DNA from: a virus
Lineage: Duplodnaviria > Caudoviricetes
IMG/VR virus record: IMGVR_UViG_3300020044_011154
Coordinates: 1-27,980 of that record
DNA: 27,980 nucleotides
Reading direction: 5' to 3' (one strand)
The notes beneath the pieces are model-generated. The model did not search any database. It worked only from the letters and a program-made list of their open reading frames with translations, and was not told the DNA's origin. Made by a program: the position numbers and the translations under genes. Every line of letters begins with the position of its first letter. Within the stretch, counting starts at the first letter, position 1. Of this stretch, positions 856 to 27,980 are shown piece after piece.

Positions 856-3800
856 ATGGGATCGAGAAAACTTTCGTTAATCAACCAAGATAACGCGCCG
901 GTTCAGTTATCGCTTCTTGATCTCCCCGGGACTTCTGTAAGGGGATTAGAAGAGTCCTTTTTCCCCAAAATAGTTCACGACACGGCTGGATTCAAGGAAG
1001 TTTTGCGCCGCTCAGAAAAACTCGGGCTGCTCGCTTTGGATTACGAGTTCCGGAATTATCACTCGCCGACCATTACGGGAATAGCGGTACGGGATCTGGC
1101 GTATGGCGGACGGTATGATCGAACTTTGCACTCGTACATTAAAGATGCAGCCCGTTCCGGAATTCGCTTAGTCGCACATTCTGGTTTCGGTGCAGATAAG
1201 CCTGTTTTCGATGCTGTCGAAGGCTTCGACTCCCCGCTAGAATGGTGGGATGATTCGATGCTCATTCACTGGTTCGAGAATTCGCATTTAACGAAAGCTC
1301 CCGGCAAGGAGGAGTCCGACGACTCCGGCGCGATGGGCTTCATGGATCTTTACACCGCCGCCTCTCTCGTCGTCGATATTCCGAACTGGAAGGAGTGTCG
1401 AGGTTCTGCCTGCCACGGCCCTTGTCCGCACCACGAGCCTTTTGCCTACTGCGCCGTCGACGCCTGGGCTGGGTTAGAAGTCTTCCTAGTCAACCGCGAG
1501 CGGTTGTTGAAGCGCGGCTTCAACTGGAAGACGTATGAGTTGCGGGCGGAACTCGCGCACTACCTCCACAAAATGGAATCGCGGGGAGTTAAAATCGACC
1601 GGCAGTTTGTAGCGAAGTTTTCCGAGAACCTTGAAACTCTTCGCGAAGGTCTATTCCCCGCAGGCGACGACGGTGAGCCGGTTCCGTTTAACCCCCGGTC
1701 GTCGCAACAAGTCGAGGCTTGGTTCAAACAGCGGAAAATCGCGCTAAAGTCGAACCAAAAGAATGATATCCGGAAGGCTTTGGAGGTTACGGCGGCGAGG
1801 TTTGGGTTCGCATCAATTGATGACCTCGATCAAGCGGATAGCTTGCCAGAAGTCCTATCAGCACTCCACAGGCTCGATCAATACAAAGGATCTGGAAAAA
1901 ATGTCGATTCCTGGTTCGATGAGAAATATTTCGACAAGGAAAGTTGTGTGCATCCTCGGTTTATTTATGTGGGTACATCGACCGGACGTCTATCGTCTTC
2001 GCGTCCGAACTGTTTTTCTGGCGATACGGAGGTTTTAACTCGCTCCGGGTGGATGTCCTTCGAAGATGCGGTTCAGTCGAAGCCGGAAGTTGCGACGTTT
2101 GACCCGAAGACGTATGCAATTCACTTCGAGGAGCCAGAAAGCTGGGTTTCGGTTGCGGGGCCTAATAAGATGGTTCATTTGTATAACGCACAGGTCGACT
2201 TGTGTGTGACAGAAGACCACGATTGTCTTGTGCGGCATCGGCGAACTGGGGAGTTTTATACTCGCAAGGCGGCGGTTTATCCGTCAGAGGTTGAGCAAGT
2301 GCAGGCGGGGCAGTATGTTGGCGGGCAAGGCGCTGTAGATAGCGATGCGATGATTCGTTTTCTTGTCGCGACTCAGGCGGATGGGTACTTCTCAGGCGGA
2401 AGCACAATAACTTTTGGCTTTACGAAAGCTCGAAAGATTCTCCGCTTAGAGGAGATCCTGAAAGAACTCGACTGCCCTTACACAAAACGGTTTAAGAAGC
2501 CGGGGGTGACGGTTTTCTATCTCCCGAAGTCTGCTGTTACGGAGAGGGTGTTAGTGTACTTGACGGCGGATAAGAGATTCGGACCCTGGCTTCTGAATTT
2601 CACAGCGGCTCAGTTGAAGTTGTTCGCGGAAGAATGTTTTTACTGGGACGGCTCGGGGCTAAGTTATTGCTCGGTTGTCCGGGAAAATGCCGAGTGGTTG
2701 CAGATTGCCTTTGCGTTGACAGGCAGACGTTGCAGTTTCACAATTACGCCGCGCCGGTTTCCTCGGCAAACGATGCATAAAATTGGCGTTGCTTTAGATC
2801 GAGACTTCACAAACATGACGATTCGAGAGAAGGATCATTATGTTTCGACTGAGACGGTTCATTGCTGTAAGGTCTCAACGGGGTGTATCGTCATTCGGCG
2901 GAAGGGAAAAATTTCGATAACCCACCAGTGTCAGAACATTCCGTCGCGCGGGTGGGGATCTTTGGTGAAAGCGGCAATTGTTCCGCACGATCCAGACTTC
3001 GACATCATCGACGCCGACCTTGGGCAGTTGGAGCTTCGCGACGTTCTTTACCAAGCCGGTTTTGACATCGGCGCGATAAAAGGAGACGCTCTTCAGTTCA
3101 TCGTCGAACAAGGTGGCGACCGCTTCGACCGTGCGGCTCAGATAGCCGGGGGTGAGGCTCGGGATATCGTTAAAACCGTCGTCTACGGCGGGCAGTACGG
3201 GGAGGGTTTGCAGATATACACCGGCGCTGACCTTATGAGGCCCACCACGCAACGAGAAATCGCCGCGGGGGCTATTCGGCTATACACGCCGCAGTACGTG
3301 CCGTGGTTGACGAAGGCGTGGGAGTACGGGGGTGGGATTGTGGGGTTTACTGGGGCGAATCTAGCAGAACGTCTTTTCGGCGACAAGTCCTGGGAGTCAC
3401 GAAAGAAAGCCCTGGAGATTCAAGACGACCTCATCTTCGGCGGCGACCTCCGGATAATCCGCGAATGGCAGATTAAGACGCTCGACGAAATCGAATCGAA
3501 AGGTTACGTCGATCTTCCGAACACCCAATTCCTGCGTTTAAACGGCTCCCCCCGGGACAACGCCAAAGTCGGGCTCGCCTTTAAAGGACAAGGACTCGGA
3601 GCCGTTCACGCCCAGGCCACTATGCTCGCTTGTATCCGCGAAAATAAAACTCTCCCCCTCTTGCAAGTACACGACTCTTTGGTGTATGCTGTGAACAGAA
3701 GCTGGTCGGACAGAAAGGTCCGCGAGTTCATCGCCCCGATGTTCGGAGAAACTTCCGTGTTACCCGGGTTTAAAGCCCCGGGGAAGGTTAAGCGGGGGGC

Positions 3801-3894
3801 TAACTACGGCGGGTTCGATGCGAAGTTAAATCCTGGAGGTTTGAAGATGATTTGGAATTCGGCGAAGGAACATGTGGATGGGAGTTTGGTATGA
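856..3894 (+). CDS. polA: Family A DNA polymerase (3'-5' exonuclease + polymerase) precursor containing an intein; about 706 aa after splicing
   Basis: ExoI LALDYE, ExoII HSGFGAD, ExoIII YCAVDA; TGRLSSSRPN|CQNIP; motif A DADLGQLELR; motif B RDIVKTVVYGGQYG; motif C LQVHDSL. Confidence 0.95.
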   Translation: MGSRKLSLINQDNAPVQLSLLDLPGTSVRGLEESFFPKIVHDTAGFKEVLRRSEKLGLLALDYEFRNYHSPTITGIAVRDLAYGGRYDRTLHSYIKDAARSGIRLVAHSGFGADKPVFDAVEGFDSPLEWWDDSMLIHWFENSHLTKAPGKEESDDSGAMGFMDLYTAASLVVDIPNWKECRGSACHGPCPHHEPFAYCAVDAWAGLEVFLVNRERLLKRGFNWKTYELRAELAHYLHKMESRGVKIDRQFVAKFSENLETLREGLFPAGDDGEPVPFNPRSSQQVEAWFKQRKIALKSNQKNDIRKALEVTAARFGFASIDDLDQADSLPEVLSALHRLDQYKGSGKNVDSWFDEKYFDKESCVHPRFIYVGTSTGRLSSSRPNCFSGDTEVLTRSGWMSFEDAVQSKPEVATFDPKTYAIHFEEPESWVSVAGPNKMVHLYNAQVDLCVTEDHDCLVRHRRTGEFYTRKAAVYPSEVEQVQAGQYVGGQGAVDSDAMIRFLVATQADGYFSGGSTITFGFTKARKILRLEEILKELDCPYTKRFKKPGVTVFYLPKSAVTERVLVYLTADKRFGPWLLNFTAAQLKLFAEECFYWDGSGLSYCSVVRENAEWLQIAFALTGRRCSFTITPRRFPRQTMHKIGVALDRDFTNMTIREKDHYVSTETVHCCKVSTGCIVIRRKGKISITHQCQNIPSRGWGSLVKAAIVPHDPDFDIIDADLGQLELRDVLYQAGFDIGAIKGDALQFIVEQGGDRFDRAAQIAGGEARDIVKTVVYGGQYGEGLQIYTGADLMRPTTQREIAAGAIRLYTPQYVPWLTKAWEYGGGIVGFTGANLAERLFGDKSWESRKKALEIQDDLIFGGDLRIIREWQIKTLDEIESKGYVDLPNTQFLRLNGSPRDNAKVGLAFKGQGLGAVHAQATMLACIRENKTLPLLQVHDSLVYAVNRSWSDRKVREFIAPMFGETSVLPGFKAPGKVKRGANYGGFDAKLNPGGLKMIWNSAKEHVDGSLV
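2011..2928 (+). mobile_element. Intein (306 aa) with LAGLIDADG homing-endonuclease domain, in polA
   Basis: Block A CFSGDTEVLT; block B VTEDH; LAGLIDADG-like FLVATQADG and FAEECFYWDG; ends ISITHQ followed by +1 Cys. Removal restores TGRLSSSRPN-CQNIP (cf. canonical PNLQNIP). Confidence 0.93.
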
Positions 3895-13595: not shown

Positions 13596-13994
13596 CTAGG
13601 CCGCTGGTATTGTCGCCGTCGGGGAGTAAGCGGGGTTGTTGACAAAGCCGCTGTTTAGCTGTGTCTGAACAAAGAAGGTTATTCGGGTTCCGGAAGGTAG
13701 GAGTAGTCGAACCGTCGCGGGGGATTTTGAAGCCGCGGTTACGAAGATAGGCTCGCGGATGTCGCCGGAAGCGGAGTAATATACGTTGTAGCCGGAGATC
13801 TTCCCCGTAAACCCCTCCGGTTCCTGCCAGGAGACGATGTATTTGGTCGGGGAAGGCGAGCTTACTTTGACGGAGGAGACGAAAGGGACGCGGAAGAAGC
13901 CGCGTTGTTGAGGGGGTAGTGAAGTTCCCTCCGCGGCGTTCGCGCGGTTTATAAGCCGGTCGAGGCTGAATTGGTCTTCGCGGTTGTATTCCAT
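13596..13994 (-). CDS. Fibronectin type III (Ig-like) domain protein
   Basis: SPTKYIVSWQEP..FTGKISGYNVYY...L.SGTRITFFVQT...G...S fits the FN3 W/Y pattern. Confidence 0.75.
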   Translation of the reverse strand: MEYNREDQFSLDRLINRANAAEGTSLPPQQRGFFRVPFVSSVKVSSPSPTKYIVSWQEPEGFTGKISGYNVYYSASGDIREPIFVTAASKSPATVRLLLPSGTRITFFVQTQLNSGFVNNPAYSPTATIPAA

Positions 13995-14242
13995 TAACCC
14001 GGCTCCTTCAGGTCGAAGAGTTTAGCCGCGGCTTTTCGCGCTTTTAAGAATAGAACGGTATCCATTTCTCGCTTCGATTTGTCACACACTGGCGGCGCAA
14101 AAGTCCGGTTCTGTTCGCACCCGGCGAGCTTGTAGAGAAAGGGCGTCCAGTGCTTTTCGAACGCGAGGACGTCCGGTACAATGTCCGCTTGGGTCGCGCT
14201 GGTTATTTGGGCGAGGTAGAGGACGATGAGGAAGCGCATCAC
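13994..14242 (-). CDS. Small protein with a signal-peptide-like N-terminus and one Cys pair
   Basis: MRFLIVLYLAQITSATQA-DIV...; GTGA and TAATG overlaps with neighbours. Confidence 0.65.
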   Translation of the reverse strand: MMRFLIVLYLAQITSATQADIVPDVLAFEKHWTPFLYKLAGCEQNRTFAPPVCDKSKREMDTVLFLKARKAAAKLFDLKEPG

Positions 14243-20173: not shown

Positions 20174-20626
20174 CTATTCTACCTTGTTGAAAGAAAACCC
20201 CGTAGCCGCTTCCAGATCGTCCCATTTCCCCGACCAGCCGACGGTGCCGCCCATGCGTGAGTAGGCCCAACGGGCGGGTTTAGAGCGCGCGTCGACGTGG
20301 ATGTAGTTCTGCCAGGGGTTCACGCCGATGCCTTTTAACTCGGGGTGTTGGAGGACGGCGTTGAACAGAGCTTTTAGGGGAAGCGACGGGCAAACGATAT
20401 CAGCCGCGATTCCATACGTGTGCGCGGAGAAGGACCCCGGGGGCTTCGATCTCTCAACCGGATGAGCCGCGCATCGGAAGCCAGAGTTGATTATCAAAGG
20501 CCGGGAGAGTTCGTCTCTCAGCTTCTGGATAATCCGAACAAACGACATCTCCGCGCGGCACACACCGCAGTGTTTGCAGGAGAACTCATCGACCGAGAAG
20601 TTGGGTGTCAGCATCTTCTTCGTCAC
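20174..20626 (-). CDS. Peptidase M15A-family (Peptidase_M15_3) endolysin
   Basis: NFSVDEFSC, INSGFRC..H, SAH..G.AADI, GIG....YIHVDAR. Confidence 0.88.
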   Translation of the reverse strand: MTKKMLTPNFSVDEFSCKHCGVCRAEMSFVRIIQKLRDELSRPLIINSGFRCAAHPVERSKPPGSFSAHTYGIAADIVCPSLPLKALFNAVLQHPELKGIGVNPWQNYIHVDARSKPARWAYSRMGGTVGWSGKWDDLEAATGFSFNKVE

Positions 20627-21288
20627 GCAGGCGTCCCTTCGATATCCGTGCGTTTGCCTGTATGAACCGCCCAGCCGCGCGAGGAGCCGCAGCCGAAGGT
20701 CGTTTCGACTTGGTCCAGGTCGAGTTCGCCCGCTTCGAGGAGATACAGAAGAACCGTCCGATACCCGCGTTTAACCTCCGACCAGGGGAGTTCGACCGCT
20801 TCTTCATGAGGCCGAAGACCGTCGAATTTAAACTCACCTGCTTCGTCATCCCAGTGAGAGGTCGGGAAGTCGGCTCTCTCCAAATGATGATGAAGGTGCC
20901 CGCCGCGGGTCGTGAGAGTGTTGTCCGAATTCTGCACTACCTCGGTCTTCCGCGCCCGTAACGAATACTCCGGCAACCAGTTACTCTCGTAAACGCAAAT
21001 CGGAATAGCCGTACCCCGGCGCTCGACAAAGACCACCCGCTTATCCGGTTTCGCCGGAAGAGTGCGGAAACGAAGTCGACCGTTTAAACGCGCGACCTTC
21101 TTTTCGAACTCGTCCGTGTTCATCCCGGTGGCTAGCCGCGCAGCCGAAGTCGGGTCATCGGCGGAGTCAATCCACACGGCTTGACTGAGAGTGGCTTCTT
21201 TGTGCTTTTCGAGACGTTCGAAATACTGGTCGATCAGAGCCTCCTCCGCCAACCGATCCAACGCCGCTTCATCACGTACAATCATCAT
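20623..21288 (-). CDS. Hypothetical protein, 221 aa
   Basis: 4-nt overlaps with both neighbours; no recognised motif. Confidence 0.7.
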   Translation of the reverse strand: MMIVRDEAALDRLAEEALIDQYFERLEKHKEATLSQAVWIDSADDPTSAARLATGMNTDEFEKKVARLNGRLRFRTLPAKPDKRVVFVERRGTAIPICVYESNWLPEYSLRARKTEVVQNSDNTLTTRGGHLHHHLERADFPTSHWDDEAGEFKFDGLRPHEEAVELPWSEVKRGYRTVLLYLLEAGELDLDQVETTFGCGSSRGWAVHTGKRTDIEGTPA

Positions 21289-21521
21289 TTCCCTTTCGTC
21301 AAGGTGCCGTTTAGCTCCGCTACAACTAAGCGTAACTGCGTAAGCTCCTTTGTCAGATCCTGAATCGCGGCGTCATGACGAAGCACGATCACCTGCAATT
21401 CCGAAACCTGCTGTGATTTTACACCATATCCAAAAGCCAGAGACCCGCAGAGTGACAGTGCGGCAACAACTCCTGCGAGAAACTCTCGGGGTGTTATTTG
21501 AATCTCGTCGGCGAATGACAA
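21285..21521 (-). CDS. Single-TM plus coiled-coil protein, possible holin/lysis accessory
   Basis: FLAGVVAALSLCGSLAFGYGV hydrophobic segment; AAGGAG 10 nt before the TTG; two genes upstream of the endolysin. Confidence 0.55.
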   Translation of the reverse strand: MSFADEIQITPREFLAGVVAALSLCGSLAFGYGVKSQQVSELQVIVLRHDAAIQDLTKELTQLRLVVAELNGTLTKGK

Positions 21522-21536
21522 TTTACATGTTCTCCT

Positions 21537-23717
21537 TTAAGGGCAAGTGGTGGATGTGATTAAACCGCCGGAAACAACGAGGTTACAAGCCCCCGCATCG
21601 TCCCCGCGGCGGACAGAAATGGTTCCGGTTAGTCCATTATTCCCGCTCGGCGCAGTTATTGTACCCGAGGCATTCAGGTTGACCGTGAAAACAGTACTCG
21701 GGCGGTTTCCGGTGGTTCCGAAGGAGTAGGTGTTATGAGCCTCCGGACGAAACGCGCCCCCAGCCTCTAAACGCCAGCGCCCGCTTCCGTTTGACTGGAA
21801 CAAGAAGTCGTGGTTAGATTGAGTTCCGACGACTCCGAAGGTAGAGGTCATGTAGAACTGCGCGATTCCGGCTAAGGTGGCGTCTTGTATCAGGATATTC
21901 GACGTCGAATCCTTACCCACAATCTTCAACTCCGTACTCGTATCCGGCGCGACATTCACACCTAGGAACTCGTTAATCCGCGCGCCGTTAGTCGTTTTCG
22001 TCCAGGGCACGGTGAGAGTCGTCGACGGCCCGTTATCGGTCACGCAAGCCGTGTCGTTTAGCGTACATTGGTTTGTCCCAATAGTCACGGTAGAGGCCCC
22101 TGAGCCGACAGAGATCGCGGTGTCGGAGCCTACAATTTGATTTCCGTCGATTAAAACCGTATTCGCCGCTTCCGCGCGAATGCCTACTACATTGATAGTC
22201 GAAGCCGGAGATTGAATATTATTCCCCAGGATGTTCAGGAAGTTCAGCCCGGAAGAGTTGATGTTGAAGGCGTAGAAGCCGTTAGTCGCAAACCAGTTGG
22301 AGACGAAGTTGTTCTGAATCTGGGCGTTTTGGAAAATCACCGGCCCGGCCCAGGTTATCGCCGAAGTCGTGTTCACGCCAGAGTCGAAGTTGTTCGAGAT
22401 AATCTGCGCCTGCGAAGTCGGCCCGACGTAGTAATTCGCCGCCGCGGAAGATCCGATGGCTGTCGAAGTCGTAATCTGTTGGTCGTTGTCGACGGAGAGG
22501 ATAACCGCGGTTAGCCCGTTTACGATGATTGAAGATCCCACCCATTCAGAGCGGAATTTGTTTCCAGAAACCCAGGTTACGGTGCTGCCGGAAGACGACG
22601 CGGTTCCGAACTTCAACTCTGCGTGAACCTGAGTCGTGTAGCCGTTAAAGTTGTTTTGTTTCACCTGCAAAGCCCCCGGGCCGTTCCACAAAACGCCGTA
22701 GGTGCAAGTGGATGAGCAAGATAGGATGTTGCCGGTGAAAAGCCCCGTCCCGGCGTCTCCGTTGTACAAACCCTCGAAGTGAACCCCGGCGGTCGCGGCA
22801 ATTGTGTTGATAAAGTGATTATCCTGAATAACCCAGCCAACGGTAACCGCGGAGTGAATCGCCTTGTCGAAGTTCGAAAACCAGTTATCCGAAATCTCCG
22901 CGCCGTAGGAGCCGCCGGTCGTCGTGTTCGAATAAATCGCCACTGTCCCCGTCTTCGAAGTCGCGTTGTTGAAATTACACCCCGACACTCGAATACCTGT
23001 CGCGGAGGCCGAGTTAAACACCTTCACATTATTCGCCATCGGCATGATGGTCGCGCCCAGGCCGTCACAGGCGACGTTAACCGCGCGGGTGCCGGTCAGG
23101 ACATCGGAGTAGACGTAGTAGGTACCTTTCCGAACGCGGACATTGACATGGCCGGAGTCGGAGGAGTAGAAGGCTTCCTGGAGGCCGGAGGAGGCCGAAG
23201 AAACCGCGGGGGTCGTGTAGGAGTTGACTAAGACGACCTGAACCGTGCCAGTAGCCGCGCCCACTGTGCAAGTTCCCACGCCGGTTGGGAAGGTGACTTC
23301 ACTTTTCGTCGCGTCATTTACGCGAATCGCCCAGGTGGTGTCAGCGGCGTTTATATGACACGGGCTTAGGGTTAAAGTCCTCGTCCCGGCGTTCACCGAG
23401 TTAACCGTTGTCGTCCAGTCGTAGTCGGAGGCTACAACACTGCCGGAGCAAGCGGCGAAGGACATGATGCCCGCCGAGGATACAGTCAGGCAGGTTCCGG
23501 TGTTTACCGGCAGGGCGGAGGGGAGTTGAAGGCGGAAGGACGATGCGATGTTCGCCGGAGCCTGCCAGCCGACGTAGTTTTGTCCGTTGGCGTACTTTTC
23601 ACGGAAGTCAATAACGCCCGTGTCAGAATCGTTCTGTTTTGGAACTATTGTGATTTTTGTAGAGGACTGGGCGTGTGCGGTAAGAGTAATAGCTACAACT
23701 AGCCAGGACAATCTCAT
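21537..23717 (-). CDS. Beta-helix (pectin-lyase-like) tailspike paralogue 2 with signal peptide, 726 aa
   Basis: MRLSWLVVAITLTAHA-QSS; fibre motif GQNYVGWQAP..LP; I..N.F and I.NN.I beta-helix rungs; C-terminal fibre-like NTYSFGTTGNR. Start reassigned from 23759 by alignment with the paralogue. Confidence 0.75.
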   Translation of the reverse strand: MRLSWLVVAITLTAHAQSSTKITIVPKQNDSDTGVIDFREKYANGQNYVGWQAPANIASSFRLQLPSALPVNTGTCLTVSSAGIMSFAACSGSVVASDYDWTTTVNSVNAGTRTLTLSPCHINAADTTWAIRVNDATKSEVTFPTGVGTCTVGAATGTVQVVLVNSYTTPAVSSASSGLQEAFYSSDSGHVNVRVRKGTYYVYSDVLTGTRAVNVACDGLGATIMPMANNVKVFNSASATGIRVSGCNFNNATSKTGTVAIYSNTTTGGSYGAEISDNWFSNFDKAIHSAVTVGWVIQDNHFINTIAATAGVHFEGLYNGDAGTGLFTGNILSCSSTCTYGVLWNGPGALQVKQNNFNGYTTQVHAELKFGTASSSGSTVTWVSGNKFRSEWVGSSIIVNGLTAVILSVDNDQQITTSTAIGSSAAANYYVGPTSQAQIISNNFDSGVNTTSAITWAGPVIFQNAQIQNNFVSNWFATNGFYAFNINSSGLNFLNILGNNIQSPASTINVVGIRAEAANTVLIDGNQIVGSDTAISVGSGASTVTIGTNQCTLNDTACVTDNGPSTTLTVPWTKTTNGARINEFLGVNVAPDTSTELKIVGKDSTSNILIQDATLAGIAQFYMTSTFGVVGTQSNHDFLFQSNGSGRWRLEAGGAFRPEAHNTYSFGTTGNRPSTVFTVNLNASGTITAPSGNNGLTGTISVRRGDDAGACNLVVSGGLITSTTCP

Positions 23718-23760
23718 GACTTTATTATCGCCTACGCAGTATTTTTCTTGCGTGCCCATG

Positions 23761-23817
23761 TTAATTTTGCGGGGTTACGTTGATTTCATCAGCGAATGAC
23801 AAATTACATAATCTCCT
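23761..23817 (-). pseudogene. Truncated duplicate of the RBS and first 13 codons of the 78-aa holin-like gene
   Basis: AAGGAGattATGTAAtTTG-SFADEINVTPQN* versus AAGGAGaacATGTAAaTTG-SFADEIQITPRE at 21537-21483. Confidence 0.7.
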
Positions 23818-23846
23818 TTTTGTTAAAGATTGCGACATTTGAACTT

Positions 23847-25745
23847 CTATGGCGTACCGGCTGAACAAACCCAGGAGCCGTTGACACGGGACGCAATAGC
23901 CCCGGTACCCGGCGTGGCGCAGGTCGAGGAGCAGTTGGAACAGTATAGCCGAGAACCGTTTTGTCCGTTTAAAGCCGACAACTCCGCGTAAGTTACGGAG
24001 AGAGAGTCGAATATCTCAGCCGTTAGATCAGTGGAGGTTAGACACGTAGTTCCGATGAGAATACACTGGTTTCCACTGACTTTCGGATACAAAGTAGTCG
24101 TCTCAATCGAAATCCCCGTCCCGGAGCCCGCGATTTGATTATTCTGAATCGCATACGTGTACCCGGAACGGATTCGGATTCCGTAAGTCGAAGTCCCCCC
24201 GGCGCTTTGGATTTGGTTGTTTCTGATACCGAAGAAGTTGAGGTTCGTGCCCGTTTCAACAGTAATCGCTTGGTGACTATTAACGCCGAACCAGTTGGAG
24301 AAAAAGTTGGATTCAAACTGAGCGTTCTGAAAAGTCACCCCGCCGGTCCAGCGGATTCCATATACCGTGTTAACCCCGGCGTCGAAGTTATTCGAAATGA
24401 TGGAGACCTGAGAGGAGCTGCTGATGTAGTAGTCCGTCGCTCCAAGTACCCCGATAGGTGCGGTGGTTTTGATCTCTGTGTCGCTCTCCACTGAGGAGAT
24501 GGTACGCGCCGTGCTACCTACATAGATTGTGGTTCCGACCCAGTTTGTGCGGAACTTATTCCCGGAAGCCCAGGTTATGGTTGACCCCGAGGAGGTTACA
24601 GTTCCGAAGGCGGGCTGAAGGTGGGCTTGGGTGGTGTATCCGTTGAAGTTGTTTAGCTTTAATTGAAGTGCCCCCGGCCCGTTCCACAATAACCCGTAGG
24701 TACAGGTGTCCGAGCACGTCATGATGTTGCCCGCAATCAACCCGGTGCCCTGGTCGCCGTTATTCAAAGACTCCGTGTGAATCGCCGCGGTGGCAGGATA
24801 GCCTGGCAGGTTCAAAATATGGTTGTTCAGAATATGCCAGCCGTTTGTCGTTACCGAGTGAATCGCTTTATCAAAGTTTACGAACCAGTTATTTTCAATA
24901 CGCCCCGCAAATGCCCCGCCGCTGGCAGGTCCATCAGCGCTGTTCGAATAAATCGCCGTGACTCCGGTCTTCGAATCGTCGTTTCTAAACGTACACGTAC
25001 TTACCTGAGGTCCGGTGCCAGCACGGGAATCGAGGAGTTTGATGTTATTACTCTTCGCTGAGAAGATAGCCCCGAGAGATGCACAGGACAAAGTCACAGG
25101 CCGCGTCCCGCCGCTGACCGTCGCATAAATGTTGTACTGCCCCGACGGAACCACAACCGCCACCTTTGCGCCATTCGCCACCGAATAAAGTGCTTCCTGT
25201 AAACCCGACGACGCACTCGACGCGGTCCAGGCTCCTGTATGAGTATTCGCCGCGGTAAACTGAACCGTCCCTGAAGTCGCGCCGCTTGTGCAAGTCCCGC
25301 CGGTAATAAGAACCGCTTCCGCCGTACCTGTGCCGCCGCTTAGATAAATGTAGTGATCTGAGTTCGACCCGCTTACATTAGTCGGACACGGAGTCAGAGT
25401 AATCGTATTCGCCCCGATGCTGATGGAGCCCCCGGGAGACCGGCTCCAGTTATAATCCGGAAGGTAGATCACAGAGGGACACGCGGCCCATGACCAGCGC
25501 CCAGAGCCGTTAGTCGAAAGGCACTGGCCGCTAATGCCGTCGGTGGAAGGTAGTGTCCAAGTTACGTCGCTTGGAATGGAGTTCGGCGCGCGAAGGGTTA
25601 CGGTATTCTGGCCGTTTTGATACAGTTCACGGAAACTGAGAACGCCTGTGGCAGAATCGTTCTGTCGTGGAACTATTGTGACTTTTGTAGAGGATTGGGC
25701 GTGGGTGTAGGCGGCGAGGAGAAGGAGGAGCGCGAATTTACGCAT
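23847..25745 (-). CDS. Beta-helix tailspike paralogue 1 with signal peptide, 632 aa
   Basis: MRKFALLLLLAAYTHA-QSS; fibre motif TLRAP..TWTLPSTDG.SGQ.LSTNGSG..SW; beta-helix rungs; Cys-rich C-terminal tip. Confidence 0.8.
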   Translation of the reverse strand: MRKFALLLLLAAYTHAQSSTKVTIVPRQNDSATGVLSFRELYQNGQNTVTLRAPNSIPSDVTWTLPSTDGISGQCLSTNGSGRWSWAACPSVIYLPDYNWSRSPGGSISIGANTITLTPCPTNVSGSNSDHYIYLSGGTGTAEAVLITGGTCTSGATSGTVQFTAANTHTGAWTASSASSGLQEALYSVANGAKVAVVVPSGQYNIYATVSGGTRPVTLSCASLGAIFSAKSNNIKLLDSRAGTGPQVSTCTFRNDDSKTGVTAIYSNSADGPASGGAFAGRIENNWFVNFDKAIHSVTTNGWHILNNHILNLPGYPATAAIHTESLNNGDQGTGLIAGNIMTCSDTCTYGLLWNGPGALQLKLNNFNGYTTQAHLQPAFGTVTSSGSTITWASGNKFRTNWVGTTIYVGSTARTISSVESDTEIKTTAPIGVLGATDYYISSSSQVSIISNNFDAGVNTVYGIRWTGGVTFQNAQFESNFFSNWFGVNSHQAITVETGTNLNFFGIRNNQIQSAGGTSTYGIRIRSGYTYAIQNNQIAGSGTGISIETTTLYPKVSGNQCILIGTTCLTSTDLTAEIFDSLSVTYAELSALNGQNGSRLYCSNCSSTCATPGTGAIASRVNGSWVCSAGTP

Positions 25746-26505
25746 TGACGAGTCCTTTCAGGGTTCCGATAAGCTGCCAACGACTTGCCGTCGTGTACTG
25801 AAAAACGTATTGTGTGTACGTACCCGCAGTGAGATCCGGGTCCTGGTCGGTGACACCGTCGAAGATTGCGCCGAAGGTGAGTGTAGAGCCGCCGCTGACC
25901 CCCTGATTGTGTTTGTACGTCAGGACAATACCGGGGACAATGACTCCGCCAGTATAAATGGGCGTCGACAGCATAACTGGAAGGCCGTTCGGTTCGCACT
26001 CTTGGGAAAGCGCGTCCGCAAGGTCTAAGGTGAGTGTCGAATCGTAATCGACGACATAGTAGCCGCCGTTGTAGTAGATTGGCATGTTTGTAGTAACCGT
26101 CGGGCCGGAATTTGGAACCGGCGGGATAAGGCCGACTGCGGGCGTCGGGAGAGTTAGGGAAGGTGGCGTGCAGGTTGCCGAGGAAACGGTGAAGAAACCC
26201 GTCGGCCCCGCGATTTGTTGCCCGGTGGAGTCGTAGTACCAAGCGACGTAGCGCGAGTTCGGCGGTTCAATATCGGCGTTGTAGCAAATCGACTCCGCGG
26301 TGTGGAAAGAGCCGTTGATAATCGGCACTTTGAGGAAAGTGGGAATCGCCACATCTGGGTAAGTCGCGGCGTAGTAGCCAAGTTGATAACCCGTCGGTAA
26401 GACTAAACCGACGAGCAAAAACCCCGTCAAAGCCGACCCATCGTCCCATGTCACCGACACGGACGGATCGAATCTAGCAAACCGAGGTAGTTGAGGGGAC
26501 GCCAT
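25738..26505 (-). CDS. Putative fibre/adaptor virion protein, 255 aa, no signal peptide
   Basis: Two beta-rich domains joined by a Pro/Thr linker; C-terminal Q..SGG.TLTF...F.Y....W fibre-type domain; ATG 26505 follows TACAAT. Confidence 0.6.
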   Translation of the reverse strand: MASPQLPRFARFDPSVSVTWDDGSALTGFLLVGLVLPTGYQLGYYAATYPDVAIPTFLKVPIINGSFHTAESICYNADIEPPNSRYVAWYYDSTGQQIAGPTGFFTVSSATCTPPSLTLPTPAVGLIPPVPNSGPTVTTNMPIYYNGGYYVVDYDSTLTLDLADALSQECEPNGLPVMLSTPIYTGGVIVPGIVLTYKHNQGVSGGSTLTFGAIFDGVTDQDPDLTAGTYTQYVFQYTTASRWQLIGTLKGLVNA

Positions 26506-26527
26506 TACGCTACTATTGTAGCGGGCC

Positions 26528-26558
26528 AAAAGAAGACCCCGGTTTTTACGCCGGGGTC
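26528..26558 (-). terminator. Intrinsic terminator downstream of the capsid gene
   Basis: Minus strand GACCCCGG-CGTAAAAA-CCGGGGTC-TTCTTTT. Confidence 0.8.
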
Positions 26559-26690: not shown

Positions 26691-26719
26691 TTGCTTATTA
26701 AAGAGGGCTCATGTATAAT
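26691..26719 (+). promoter_or_regulatory. Sigma70-type promoter of the antisense HNH gene
   Basis: TTGCTT (26691-26696), 17-nt spacer, TATAAT (26714-26719); in-frame GTG 7 nt downstream. Confidence 0.75.
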
Positions 26720-26726
26720 CAGAAGC

Positions 26727-27449
26727 GTGGGATCTAAATACATCCAAAAGCAATGTGAATTTTGTGGCAAGGACATGCCGATCAACTACAACCAGAAGCC
26801 TTCAGTCGCAAACCAGCGTCGTTTCTGCGCCCAGGCGTGCAGTGTGAGTTTTCGCCACTTGTCGTGGAAGGAGCAGGGAAAGGAGACGCCGCGGGGGTGG
26901 AAGCGTTTTGGCCCCGACGGAGGTAAAATCGTCCGGTCCTTTATCGGCGAGCGGGCTCGGGCGAAATACGAGGCAAATCCTAAGATTTGTCGAGGTTGCG
27001 GCATTCCGATTCCACTTCCGGCGTCTGGACGCCCGTGTGATTTAGAGAAAACCACACACTGTTCGCCGGAATGCTCGAAGGCGCATCGTAAGCGGCGGAC
27101 GTTCTGGGGCGAGGATAAGCTACCACCGACCCTGTTCGTTTCAACGATTCCTTTCAAGAAAAAAGGCGAGGTAAAGGTCCAGGATCTCCGTCAGCATGCG
27201 AAGAAGGTGTACCGCAGTTATTCGACGGAGCAGAAGTGCGAACTCTGCGGTATCGAATTGCCCTACTTACCAGAAGTCGCCCACATTAAGCCGGTAGCCG
27301 CCTGGGTCAACGACGACATTCTTCTGGAGATCAACCAGCTTTCTAATCTCATCGGTTTGTGCCCGTCGGATCATAAGTCTTTCGATCTGGGACACATCCC
27401 GCTTGAACGGATAAAAGAAAAGGTCGCGATCCGAAGACCACGACCTTAG
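26727..27449 (+). CDS. HNH endonuclease with two N-terminal zinc-finger repeats, antisense to the structural operon
   Basis: CEFC..FCAQAC and CRGC..HCSPEC; CELCG...EVAHIKP...NQLSNLIGLCPSDHKSFD. Start moved to GTG 26727 because TTG 26691 is the -35 box. Confidence 0.85.
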   Translation: MGSKYIQKQCEFCGKDMPINYNQKPSVANQRRFCAQACSVSFRHLSWKEQGKETPRGWKRFGPDGGKIVRSFIGERARAKYEANPKICRGCGIPIPLPASGRPCDLEKTTHCSPECSKAHRKRRTFWGEDKLPPTLFVSTIPFKKKGEVKVQDLRQHAKKVYRSYSTEQKCELCGIELPYLPEVAHIKPVAAWVNDDILLEINQLSNLIGLCPSDHKSFDLGHIPLERIKEKVAIRRPRP

Positions 27450-27471: not shown

Positions 27472-27978
27472 CTAAGCTATCGAACTCTGGGCATCAATCG
27501 TGCGGAACCTGAAATTTCCACCAATCCCGACCGACCCGTCGATCACAACTGCCGTATAGGTGAAACGGTAACTTACAGCCCCACCAATTTGCCCCTCAGG
27601 ATCTGGAATGCTAGGCACTCCGCCGCGGACCACTCGGACGTTGAAGCCCTGTTTCGTGGGGTCAGTGACCTTGGAGGGCACGGAGCCTTCGAGGGACGTA
27701 CAGGCGATGCCGCCCTTACCGAAGACGTAGGTGCGGTAGCTCGCCGGGGAGCCTGAGGAGTAGACGTTCGTCGACTCGATGATCTTCGAGCCAGCCACCT
27801 GGGCAAACTGGCCGCGGTCCTGGCGGTTAACCAGATTGGCCTTGTCCGGGTTGGTGTACTTGAAGATGTCCGCCAGACCGTTAGCCGCCGGGTCGTTAGC
27901 GAGGTCGTAGGAGTTGTACGGCGAGGTGACCACCAAGGACTGACCGTCCTCGAACGGCTCGACGCGGAGACCCTGGAG
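27472..27978 (-). CDS. Major capsid protein, C-terminal part (N4-gp56-like, HK97 fold); runs off the window
   Basis: Frame open to the edge: LQGLRVEPFEDGQSLVVTSPY.SYDL.ND...DIFKY...G..AG.KIIEST...YRTYVFG...DPEGQIGGAVSY.F. Confidence 0.75.
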   Translation of the reverse strand, partial: LQGLRVEPFEDGQSLVVTSPYNSYDLANDPAANGLADIFKYTNPDKANLVNRQDRGQFAQVAGSKIIESTNVYSSGSPASYRTYVFGKGGIACTSLEGSVPSKVTDPTKQGFNVRVVRGGVPSIPDPEGQIGGAVSYRFTYTAVVIDGSVGIGGNFRFRTIDAQSSIA

Positions 27979-27980
27979 GC

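Follow-up and report, generated by a model that had tools for sequence, protein, structure and literature searches.

The viral record IMGVR_UViG_3300020044_011154 (Duplodnaviria; Caudoviricetes), the entirety of which constitutes the 27,980-base window analyzed here, carries on its minus strand two consecutive genes for beta-helix proteins of the tailspike type, referred to as spike A and spike B, each beginning with a putative signal peptide, together with an upstream gene for a signal-less protein of 255 amino acids (aa), referred to as the adaptor. Spike A (23847..25745), recognized from its reading frame, homologues, and structural model, consists of 632 aa with 14 Cys residues, and spike B (21537..23717) consists of 726 aa when counted from the ATG at 23717, in a frame that opens at 23759, with 12 Cys residues in the mature chain and a fibre-like C-terminal tip. 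The signal peptides, each 16 aa long, are located at 25698..25745 in spike A (MRKFALLLLLAAYTHA, with T-H-A before the predicted cut and Q after it) and at 23670..23717 in spike B (MRLSWLVVAITLTAHA, with A-H-A before the cut and Q after it), and in both spikes the segment QSSTK(V/I)TIVP(R/K)QNDS follows the leader directly. The positions and length of the two leaders, as well as the near-identical mature start, had been proposed in a first-pass annotation made from the DNA alone and are confirmed by the sequence. The adaptor (25738..26505) comprises an N-domain (residues 1-122), a Pro-rich linker, and a C-terminal docking domain, with the stop codon of its gene lying within the beginning of the spike A gene.

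Leaders were called with a heuristic of our own for the n-, h-, and c-regions, used in place of SignalP. By this heuristic, the leaders of both spikes exhibit a basic n-region, a hydrophobic h-region, and small residues at positions -3 and -1, and leaders are called in 3 of the 27 genes of the window, namely the two spikes and an 82-aa gene; none is called in the adaptor. Among 1200 random internal pseudo-starts serving as a null, 2 reached a score of at least 9.5 and 49 reached any score, which excludes a leader arising by chance. Export as lipoproteins or through the Tat pathway was also considered and excluded, since position +1 is Gln rather than Cys and neither leader contains RR. The two spikes share 48% identity over 573 aa (E 2e-164), with unrelated C-termini, and at the DNA level nucleotides 43-120 are 86% identical, whereas the leader-coding nucleotides 1-42 cannot be aligned. 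Across eight 16-aa leaders of this kind the mean pairwise identity is 35%, compared with 83% for the 16 residues that follow, in agreement with the earlier claim that the leaders differ in sequence while keeping their length and architecture. The frame of spike B begins 14 codons upstream, at the ATG at 23759; however, the ATG at 23717, which gives the 16-aa leader, appears to be the favoured start because it is preceded by GCGATAAT-N6-ATG, a motif that also marks the start of a 527-aa tailspike in three of three close relatives.

Conservation of the leader was assessed in the best 120 of 243 protein matches, reduced to 118 after removal of the window's own proteins. A leader with any heuristic score is present in 85 of these 118 homologues, in all 31 open reading frames (ORFs) containing the N-terminal segment of the spikes (many of them near-copies, with 16 distinct N-termini), and in 14 of the 15 further proteins (P0134-P0148) obtained by a beta-helix search, and under a lenient rule Gln lies near the predicted cut in 64 of the 85 leader-bearing homologues. 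The other homologues, of a kind that the first-pass annotation would have counted against export, are signal-less and mostly devoid of a particular Cys pair as well. This pair, Cys120/Cys152, is located in the shared beta-rich domain of about 95 aa (residues 97-192 of spike A; 25170..25457, minus strand) and covaries with the leader. In the 117 homologues in which the domain could be aligned, positions 120 and 152 are occupied by C/C in 82, by V/A or V/G in 32, and by mixed residues in 3, with C/C found in 74 of 85 leader-bearing proteins versus 8 of 32 signal-less proteins (odds ratio 20, p 3e-10, Fisher). Three of those 8 have leaders by eye that the heuristic missed, and several start in mid-domain. 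A census of DNA loci, which overlaps the protein set, was compiled from the best 80 of 201 viral matches, 13 genome matches, and earlier loci, and comprised 80 rows once exact domain duplicates and the window had been removed and start codons checked. Neither Cys is present in 39 of the 42 signal-less loci and both in 3 (two of these with a visible leader), while the leader-bearing loci have both in 27 of 37, one in 8, and none in 2, a further row being open-ended.

The association is also observed in two other domains. In a second N-terminal domain, all 10 leader-bearing proteins have a C..C pair, and none of the 3 signal-less ones does. In the mature N-terminal fibre segment, which in spike A (residues 17-91; 25473..25697, minus strand) includes the predicted docking residues and Cys75/Cys89, the pair occurs in 13 of 13 aligned leader-bearing proteins and is missing from the signal-less fibres of the isolated phages DSL-LC04, S-B05, and Mosig (3/3, from 3 of 11 matches opened). 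Each of the 14 Cys residues of spike A is conserved in 76-100% of about 21 close homologues. Owing to relatedness, and with two supported pairs available to an independent-pairs test, the Fisher p-values overstate the independence of these counts; the tree of the shared domain is poorly resolved (4 of 115 branches starred) and requires 18 label changes versus 28 when labels are shuffled. The same domains are also found with the leader cleanly absent. It is the covariation of Cys pairs with the leader, rather than disulfides alone, that points to folding in an oxidising compartment, and the conservation of the leader, combined with this covariation in three separate domains, makes real export of the spikes highly probable on computational grounds, as the first-pass annotation had suggested.

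The same annotation had named the 255-aa protein as a possible dock. Its C-domain (residues 138-255; 25741..26094, minus strand) is similar to PF26209, the C-terminal domain of phage tail fibres (Atlas TM 0.78-0.81), and a profile search indicated a weak likeness to a fibre of the phiTE baseplate entry 9CUY (chain 9cuy_g, E 0.006). It may also resemble the XD domains (XD2/XD3) of T4 gp10, a likeness that the searches did not confirm. The full adaptor profile gave nothing meaningful against PDB sequences, and among the PDB matches listed for the C-domain profile there was no gp10, TSP4, or KP32 chain, a result that excludes nothing. Neither the shared domain nor the adaptor C-domain had a tblastn match in 50,697 deposited phages, and 13 homologues of the adaptor were found. 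A complex was predicted from three copies of adaptor residues 138-255 and three copies of mature spike residues 1-78, the latter being modelled as three copies at a pLDDT of 92. The complex score was 0.94, compared with 0.00 for the best of three controls, with 100% contact agreement between runs and a partner pLDDT of at least 91; solved complexes reach the corresponding mark in 116 of 157 cases and mismatched pairs in 2 of 215, a calibration that serves as a rough guide for an oligomeric job with custom alignments. In this model the N-terminal trimer of the mature spike is predicted to bind the C-domain trimer of the adaptor, the contacts being mature spike residues 1-5, 7, 9-13, 26, and 30 and adaptor residues 206, 208-209, 220-226, 229, and 248-252. 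Twelve of the 13 spike contact residues are identical between spikes A and B, versus 17 of the 31 other residues in positions 1-44.

Gene linkage provides a further line of evidence. An adaptor with the C-domain is followed by a translationally coupled, leader-bearing spike in six of six loci (the window, L002-L004, L119, and L120), one of which is at 43% identity and another of which, L119, is close to L004, whereas a short adaptor of 133-136 aa without the C-domain is followed by no spike in two of two distinct phages (G004 and L121). Phages without spikes keep the adaptor N-domain directly after the capsid gene, and the adaptor gene is found behind that for the capsid in all podovirus loci that cover this region. 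Of the 31 ORFs with the N-terminal segment of the spikes, 30 are coupled to an upstream gene, which ends in the adaptor C-domain in 7 of the 30 loci, one of these genes encoding a 1247-aa siphovirus tail protein. In the siphoviruses L011-L013, the C-terminal end of the tail protein (PF13550, phrog_1727) corresponds to the adaptor C-domain (E 4e-26), its gene being followed directly by one for a leader-bearing spike in which the motif I-x-P-K-Q-D-D-S is retained, whereas the spikes of siphoviruses with a look-alike domain are without this motif. The predicted complex, the presence/absence linkage, and these matching changes in the two partners support the proposed role of the 255-aa protein as a dock. 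They also bear on the choice, left open by the first-pass annotation, between docking onto virions and free depolymerase activity, of which docking is now the better supported.

The beta-helix assignment was likewise upheld by modelling of spike A. A single-sequence model of spike A was unusable (pLDDT 34.5), and a model of the mature protein based on a 33-sequence alignment reached a pLDDT of 84.8, displaying a right-handed parallel beta-helix at about residues 190-575 (24021..25178, minus strand), in which Asp331 and Asp455 are invariant among close homologues. The structures matched by this model are GH110 and GH87 enzymes, Klebsiella depolymerases, and phage tailspikes. A VIA comparison gave Z 31.3 to the tailspike of Pam1 (7eea; rmsd 2.5, 338 aligned) and Z 31.1 to that of Sf6 (2vbe; rmsd 2.9, 354 aligned). 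Spike A is thus a tailspike-type beta-helix protein according to its model, and spike B likewise by its 48% identity. Since non-phage beta-helices such as PfbA score equally (VIA Z 31.6), the fold says nothing about activity or substrate. At the thresholds applied, neither the two spikes nor the adaptor matched Pfam or PHROG families, apart from TIG and Big_3 matches below threshold (E up to 1), and the sole match of the spike profile among PDB sequences was the T5 L-shaped fibre (E 0.015). P0074, a leader-bearing homologue, carries an S74 intramolecular chaperone domain at its C-terminus, as do trimeric phage fibres and MAT adhesins.

Taken as a whole, the data favour a reading that we regard as probable, in which the spikes fold in the periplasm and dock onto the virion adaptor at lysis. 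The adaptor and spike A would likely be made from one mRNA, the adaptor staying in the cytoplasm, likely bound to the particle, and the spikes likely being exported via host Sec and cleaved before Gln17, after which they would be disulfide-bonded and trimerised in the periplasm. Lysis would then mix both pools and allow the freed N-terminus of the spike to plug into the adaptor trimer. Spikes A and B would be alternative occupants of one site, because the docking residues are common to both, and would add accessory polysaccharide binding beside a conventional tailspike. Real export and cleavage, disulfide formation, and docking at or after lysis are the components that we infer. The position of the adaptor gene after the capsid gene and the retention of its N-domain in phages without spikes suggest that the adaptor is a head decoration protein, the dock thus probably lying on the head. 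Of the earlier "tailspike" label, the fold holds, and the tail location is doubtful, because in this podovirus the gene block containing the dock follows the major capsid gene and not tail genes. Extended to a widespread group of Acidobacteria podoviruses and siphoviruses, the proposal would be that assembly is split across the inner membrane, with spikes secreted, folded in the periplasm, and plugged in at lysis via a branching domain, cleavage exposing the docking peptide; we lean towards this extension with somewhat less assurance.

Several observations weigh against this interpretation. Concerning export, an even number of Cys residues is found in only 57 of the 85 leader-bearing proteins (p 0.002; 18 of 33 without a leader), and the independent-pairs test was underpowered, with two supported pairs (p 0.5). 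A signal-less beta-helix spike of 527 aa is also encoded in three of three close relatives, by a gene upstream of the terminase in a region outside the window, and one complete relative has no leader-bearing fibre at all, for which reasons export looks dispensable in this podovirus group and the exported spike accessory. The shared domain and leader also occur together in proteins encoded among ordinary chromosomal genes on three long Acidobacteriota contigs, so that such proteins can exist without a virion. Concerning the dock, the adaptor N-domain matched nothing in PHROG or the PDB, and the place of the adaptor in the virion consequently depends on gene order. The contact residues of the adaptor are no more conserved than the remainder of its C-domain (0.76 vs 0.77), the 3+3 complex is unlike the calibration set of the predictor, and its pass may reflect a likeness to solved branched-spike complexes. 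As the fibre segment is internal in the isolated-phage fibres, only its first 13 or so residues are specific to docking. In 23 of the 30 coupled loci, moreover, the upstream C-domain is only a weak look-alike, with a global score of 16.4 versus 3.5+-2.0 in 60 shuffles (shuffled maximum 8.7), and local hhalign between the adaptor C-domain and the siphovirus look-alikes was not significant.

Some of these observations are also what would be expected if the spikes were exported and never joined virions, acting instead as free or cell-associated proteins that bind or degrade polysaccharides and thereby clear capsule for the progeny set free or mask receptors on the infected cell. Soluble, diffusible depolymerases have been hypothesised for some Klebsiella phages in the excerpted text of PMC6872550, the close relatives have a separate signal-less tailspike, and the chromosomal host proteins with the same domain and leader recall the exported MAT fibres of Bdellovibrio (PMC10769870, in excerpt). 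Such a role would nevertheless fail to account for the near-invariance of the mature N-terminus, for an interface predicted with a signal-less protein, for the linkage to the C-domain in six of six loci against none of two, and for the coupling to siphovirus tail proteins, and is considered unlikely. A soluble complex released at lysis, or a membrane site at which particles collect spikes before lysis, would retain the interaction between spike and adaptor and place it off the virion; the particle location of the adaptor being deduced from gene order leaves room for this, yet phages devoid of spikes still encode the N-domain immediately behind the capsid gene, and the docking domain of siphoviruses belongs to a tail protein, making binding off the virion very unlikely.

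The remaining alternatives concern the leader itself. Leaky export could give the spikes a dual fate, in which the virion copies would represent a cytoplasmic fraction, either unexported or translated from another start, and the exported pool would serve otherwise. The short length of the leaders (16 aa) and the upstream in-frame ATG of spike B, which would lengthen the n-region, are compatible with such a division, as are the virion disulfides of phage Milano, described in excerpts of PMC10491603 and PMC11972413, owing to which Cys pairs alone do not prove export. The Cys pairs are, however, present with the leader and gone without it, no Met codon lies in frame between leader and docking residues, and the model places contacts from mature residue 1 onwards; a dual fate thus appears quite unlikely. 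If the leader were instead an uncleaved hydrophobic segment, structural or membrane-anchoring, that mimics a signal peptide, as the predicted status of cleavage would permit, its drift to 35% identity while its length, the small -3/-1 residues, and the following Gln are kept would be difficult to understand, as would the occurrence of the same domains with the leader cleanly absent; this alternative is hardly credible.

Tailspikes of the P22, Sf6, and HK620 type are not known to carry a signal peptide and are synthesised and assembled in the cytoplasm, and the P22 tailspike reportedly attaches to finished heads in vitro. Together with that of cyanophage Pam1, these tailspikes share the right-handed beta-helix with spike A, and unlike the P22, Sf6, and HK620 proteins the window spikes carry a leader. 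Closer parallels are found in the branched systems KP32 gp37/gp38, G7C gp66/gp63.1, and the K1-5 adaptor gp37, which according to excerpts of PMC13352976 and PMC6872550 combine a T4gp10-like branching domain with a conserved N-terminal peptide, a pairing validated in KP32. The window resembles the branched systems in having an anchor, encoded upstream, that bears a docking domain, and a beta-helix spike, encoded downstream, whose short conserved N-terminal peptide serves for attachment (in the window, by prediction). In contrast to those systems, the peptide in the window lies behind a signal peptide, synthesis of the two partners would be split between compartments, the spikes contain paired Cys residues, and the anchor, whose gene comes after that for the capsid, lacks an enzymatic domain.

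That phage-fibre-like folds can be exported is indicated by the MAT fibres of Bdellovibrio, trimeric adhesins made with a signal peptide (PMC10769870, in excerpt); unlike these chromosomal cell-surface adhesins, the window genes lie in a phage late operon and are coupled to a virion-type adaptor. Sec-exported endolysins such as Lys44 of fOg44, as well as signal-arrest-release (SAR) endolysins, are known in tailed phages (PMC6116005, in excerpt) and likewise represent late products that pass through Sec and are kept outside the membrane until lysis, with the difference that they are lysis enzymes and the window spikes proposed parts of the particle. Phage Milano has disulfide-linked structural virion proteins (PMC10491603, PMC11972413), and the excerpts of these texts mention neither signal peptides nor periplasm, whereas the Cys pairs in the window track the leader. 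In the excerpts of PMC5723332, PMC8951688, and PMC11474366, signal peptides are tied to lysis or unspecified proteins and not to spikes. No published case of exported spikes or fibres joining virions was found in searches of an open-access library, supplements aside.

In the textbook view, the assembly of tailed phages takes place entirely in the cytoplasm, and a route through the periplasm would be new for them if virion incorporation holds. A periplasmic branch, if true, would change this rule and explain ordered disulfides in phage spikes, and docking at lysis would be open to control by the host Sec, signal peptidase, and Dsb systems. Possible benefits, stated here as speculation, include sturdier spikes, avoidance of early assembly or of cytoplasmic sensing, and module exchange with exported host adhesins. 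In annotation practice, filters based on signal peptides would misfile such spikes as host or moron proteins.

Leaders occur on related proteins in several other contexts. The chromosomal versions are leader-bearing shared-domain proteins of 1116-1276 aa in Acidobacteriota metagenome-assembled genomes (MAGs; L090 6936-10286, L095 6783-10220, and L097 6939-10769), possibly domesticated fibre adhesins, and suggest an exchange between phage spikes and host adhesins like the Bdellovibrio MATs. The N-terminal domains phrog_7578 and phrog_26190 are found behind a leader (P0013, P0023, P0096) or without one (P0029; P0049, whose start may be truncated; L104 6423-8006), and export thus seems attached to several anchor types. 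More leader-bearing proteins, one of which matches virion-protein PHROGs, form a variable module upstream of the terminase in two close relatives (L104 2915-5595, L105 5723-8000), adjoining the signal-less 527-aa tailspike. A 98%-complete siphovirus has leaders on both of its fibre-type genes, and exported spikes may be needed for infection in some siphoviruses. At L107 (17170-17927; G005), the siphovirus encodes, after its exported spike and where a fibre chaperone gene is often located, small Cys-containing proteins with leaders, which are possibly co-exported chaperones.

Among the genes of the window, Pfam and PHROG searches identified those for a family-A DNA polymerase, an SU10-like adaptor, and an M15 endolysin, along with the terminal part of a capsid gene. 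In close relatives the gene order is terminase, portal, scaffold, major capsid, 255-aa gene, one spike, 78-aa gene, 221-aa gene, endolysin, and neck genes, which indicates that the window virus is a podovirus. Eleven of the 13 shared-domain matches among 185,579 genomes are Acidobacteriota MAGs, for which reason the host is probably an Acidobacterium, an inference from relatives rather than a host assignment proper. The C-terminal part of the major capsid protein is encoded at 27472..27980 (minus strand), with a C-terminus as in the 329-aa gene of L002 (phrog_1357, major head, E 1.6e-20). The adaptor gene comes after it, with an HNH endonuclease gene on the plus strand (26691-27449) inserted between the two in reversed orientation and flanked on both sides by terminator-like hairpins; the HNH gene is absent from this position in L002 and L003.

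Upstream of the adaptor (26505..26558, minus strand), a terminator-like hairpin at 26558-26535 is followed by a TACAAT hexamer 9 nt before the ATG, and TACAAT or TACCAT stands shortly before the ATG in all eight adaptor loci inspected. The hexamer likely belongs to a promoter from which transcripts would start with hardly any 5' untranslated region. Similar -10-like hexamers lie a few bases before the adaptor and spike ATGs (window 26520-26503 and 23731-23715), with no clear Shine-Dalgarno sequence, and are also present in L002-L005, L104-L106, and L119-L121, which suggests promoters of this kind for the adaptor and spike genes generally in these loci. A sigma-70 consensus scan was uninformative, with 4 sites versus 4.2 expected.

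Downstream of spike B, the 78-aa protein (21285..21521, minus strand), with one hydrophobic segment and a coiled coil, is holin-like by position only, and the peptidase M15 endolysin (20174..20626, minus strand; PF08291, E 2.5e-12; phrog_894) is separated from it by the 221-aa gene. The first-pass annotation had placed the spikes directly upstream of holin-like and endolysin genes; of this, the endolysin was verified, the direct adjacency fails because of the intervening gene, and the holin label gained no match in the Pfam and PHROG searches. Adjacency to lysis genes was rejected as evidence, since it adds little. Between the spike genes (23761..23819, minus strand) lies a remnant of the 5' end of the 78-aa gene, identical at 31 of 37 nt and containing a 13-codon mini-ORF. 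This remnant, together with the single spike at this locus in close relatives, makes it likely that spike B is a later tandem insertion and the pair a recent tandem acquisition. Before the 78-aa gene itself stand a strong ribosome-binding site and then an ATG-TAA start-stop element, with the TTG start of the gene one base on (21538-21521, minus strand); the element is kept in the window and in all three close relatives (L002-L004), is also found in the remnant at 23819-23800, and may lower expression.

The 1012-aa DNA polymerase (856-3894, plus strand) contains an insertion of about 310 aa at about residues 387-695 that is intein-like in look, the best Pfam and PHROG stretches stopping at about residue 386. 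The leader-bearing 81/82-aa gene (13994-14239, minus strand), which had no family match in the PHROG search, lies between nozzle-like and fn3 genes, encodes two Cys residues, and is kept with its leader in G001-G004, one of which is the phage without exported spikes.

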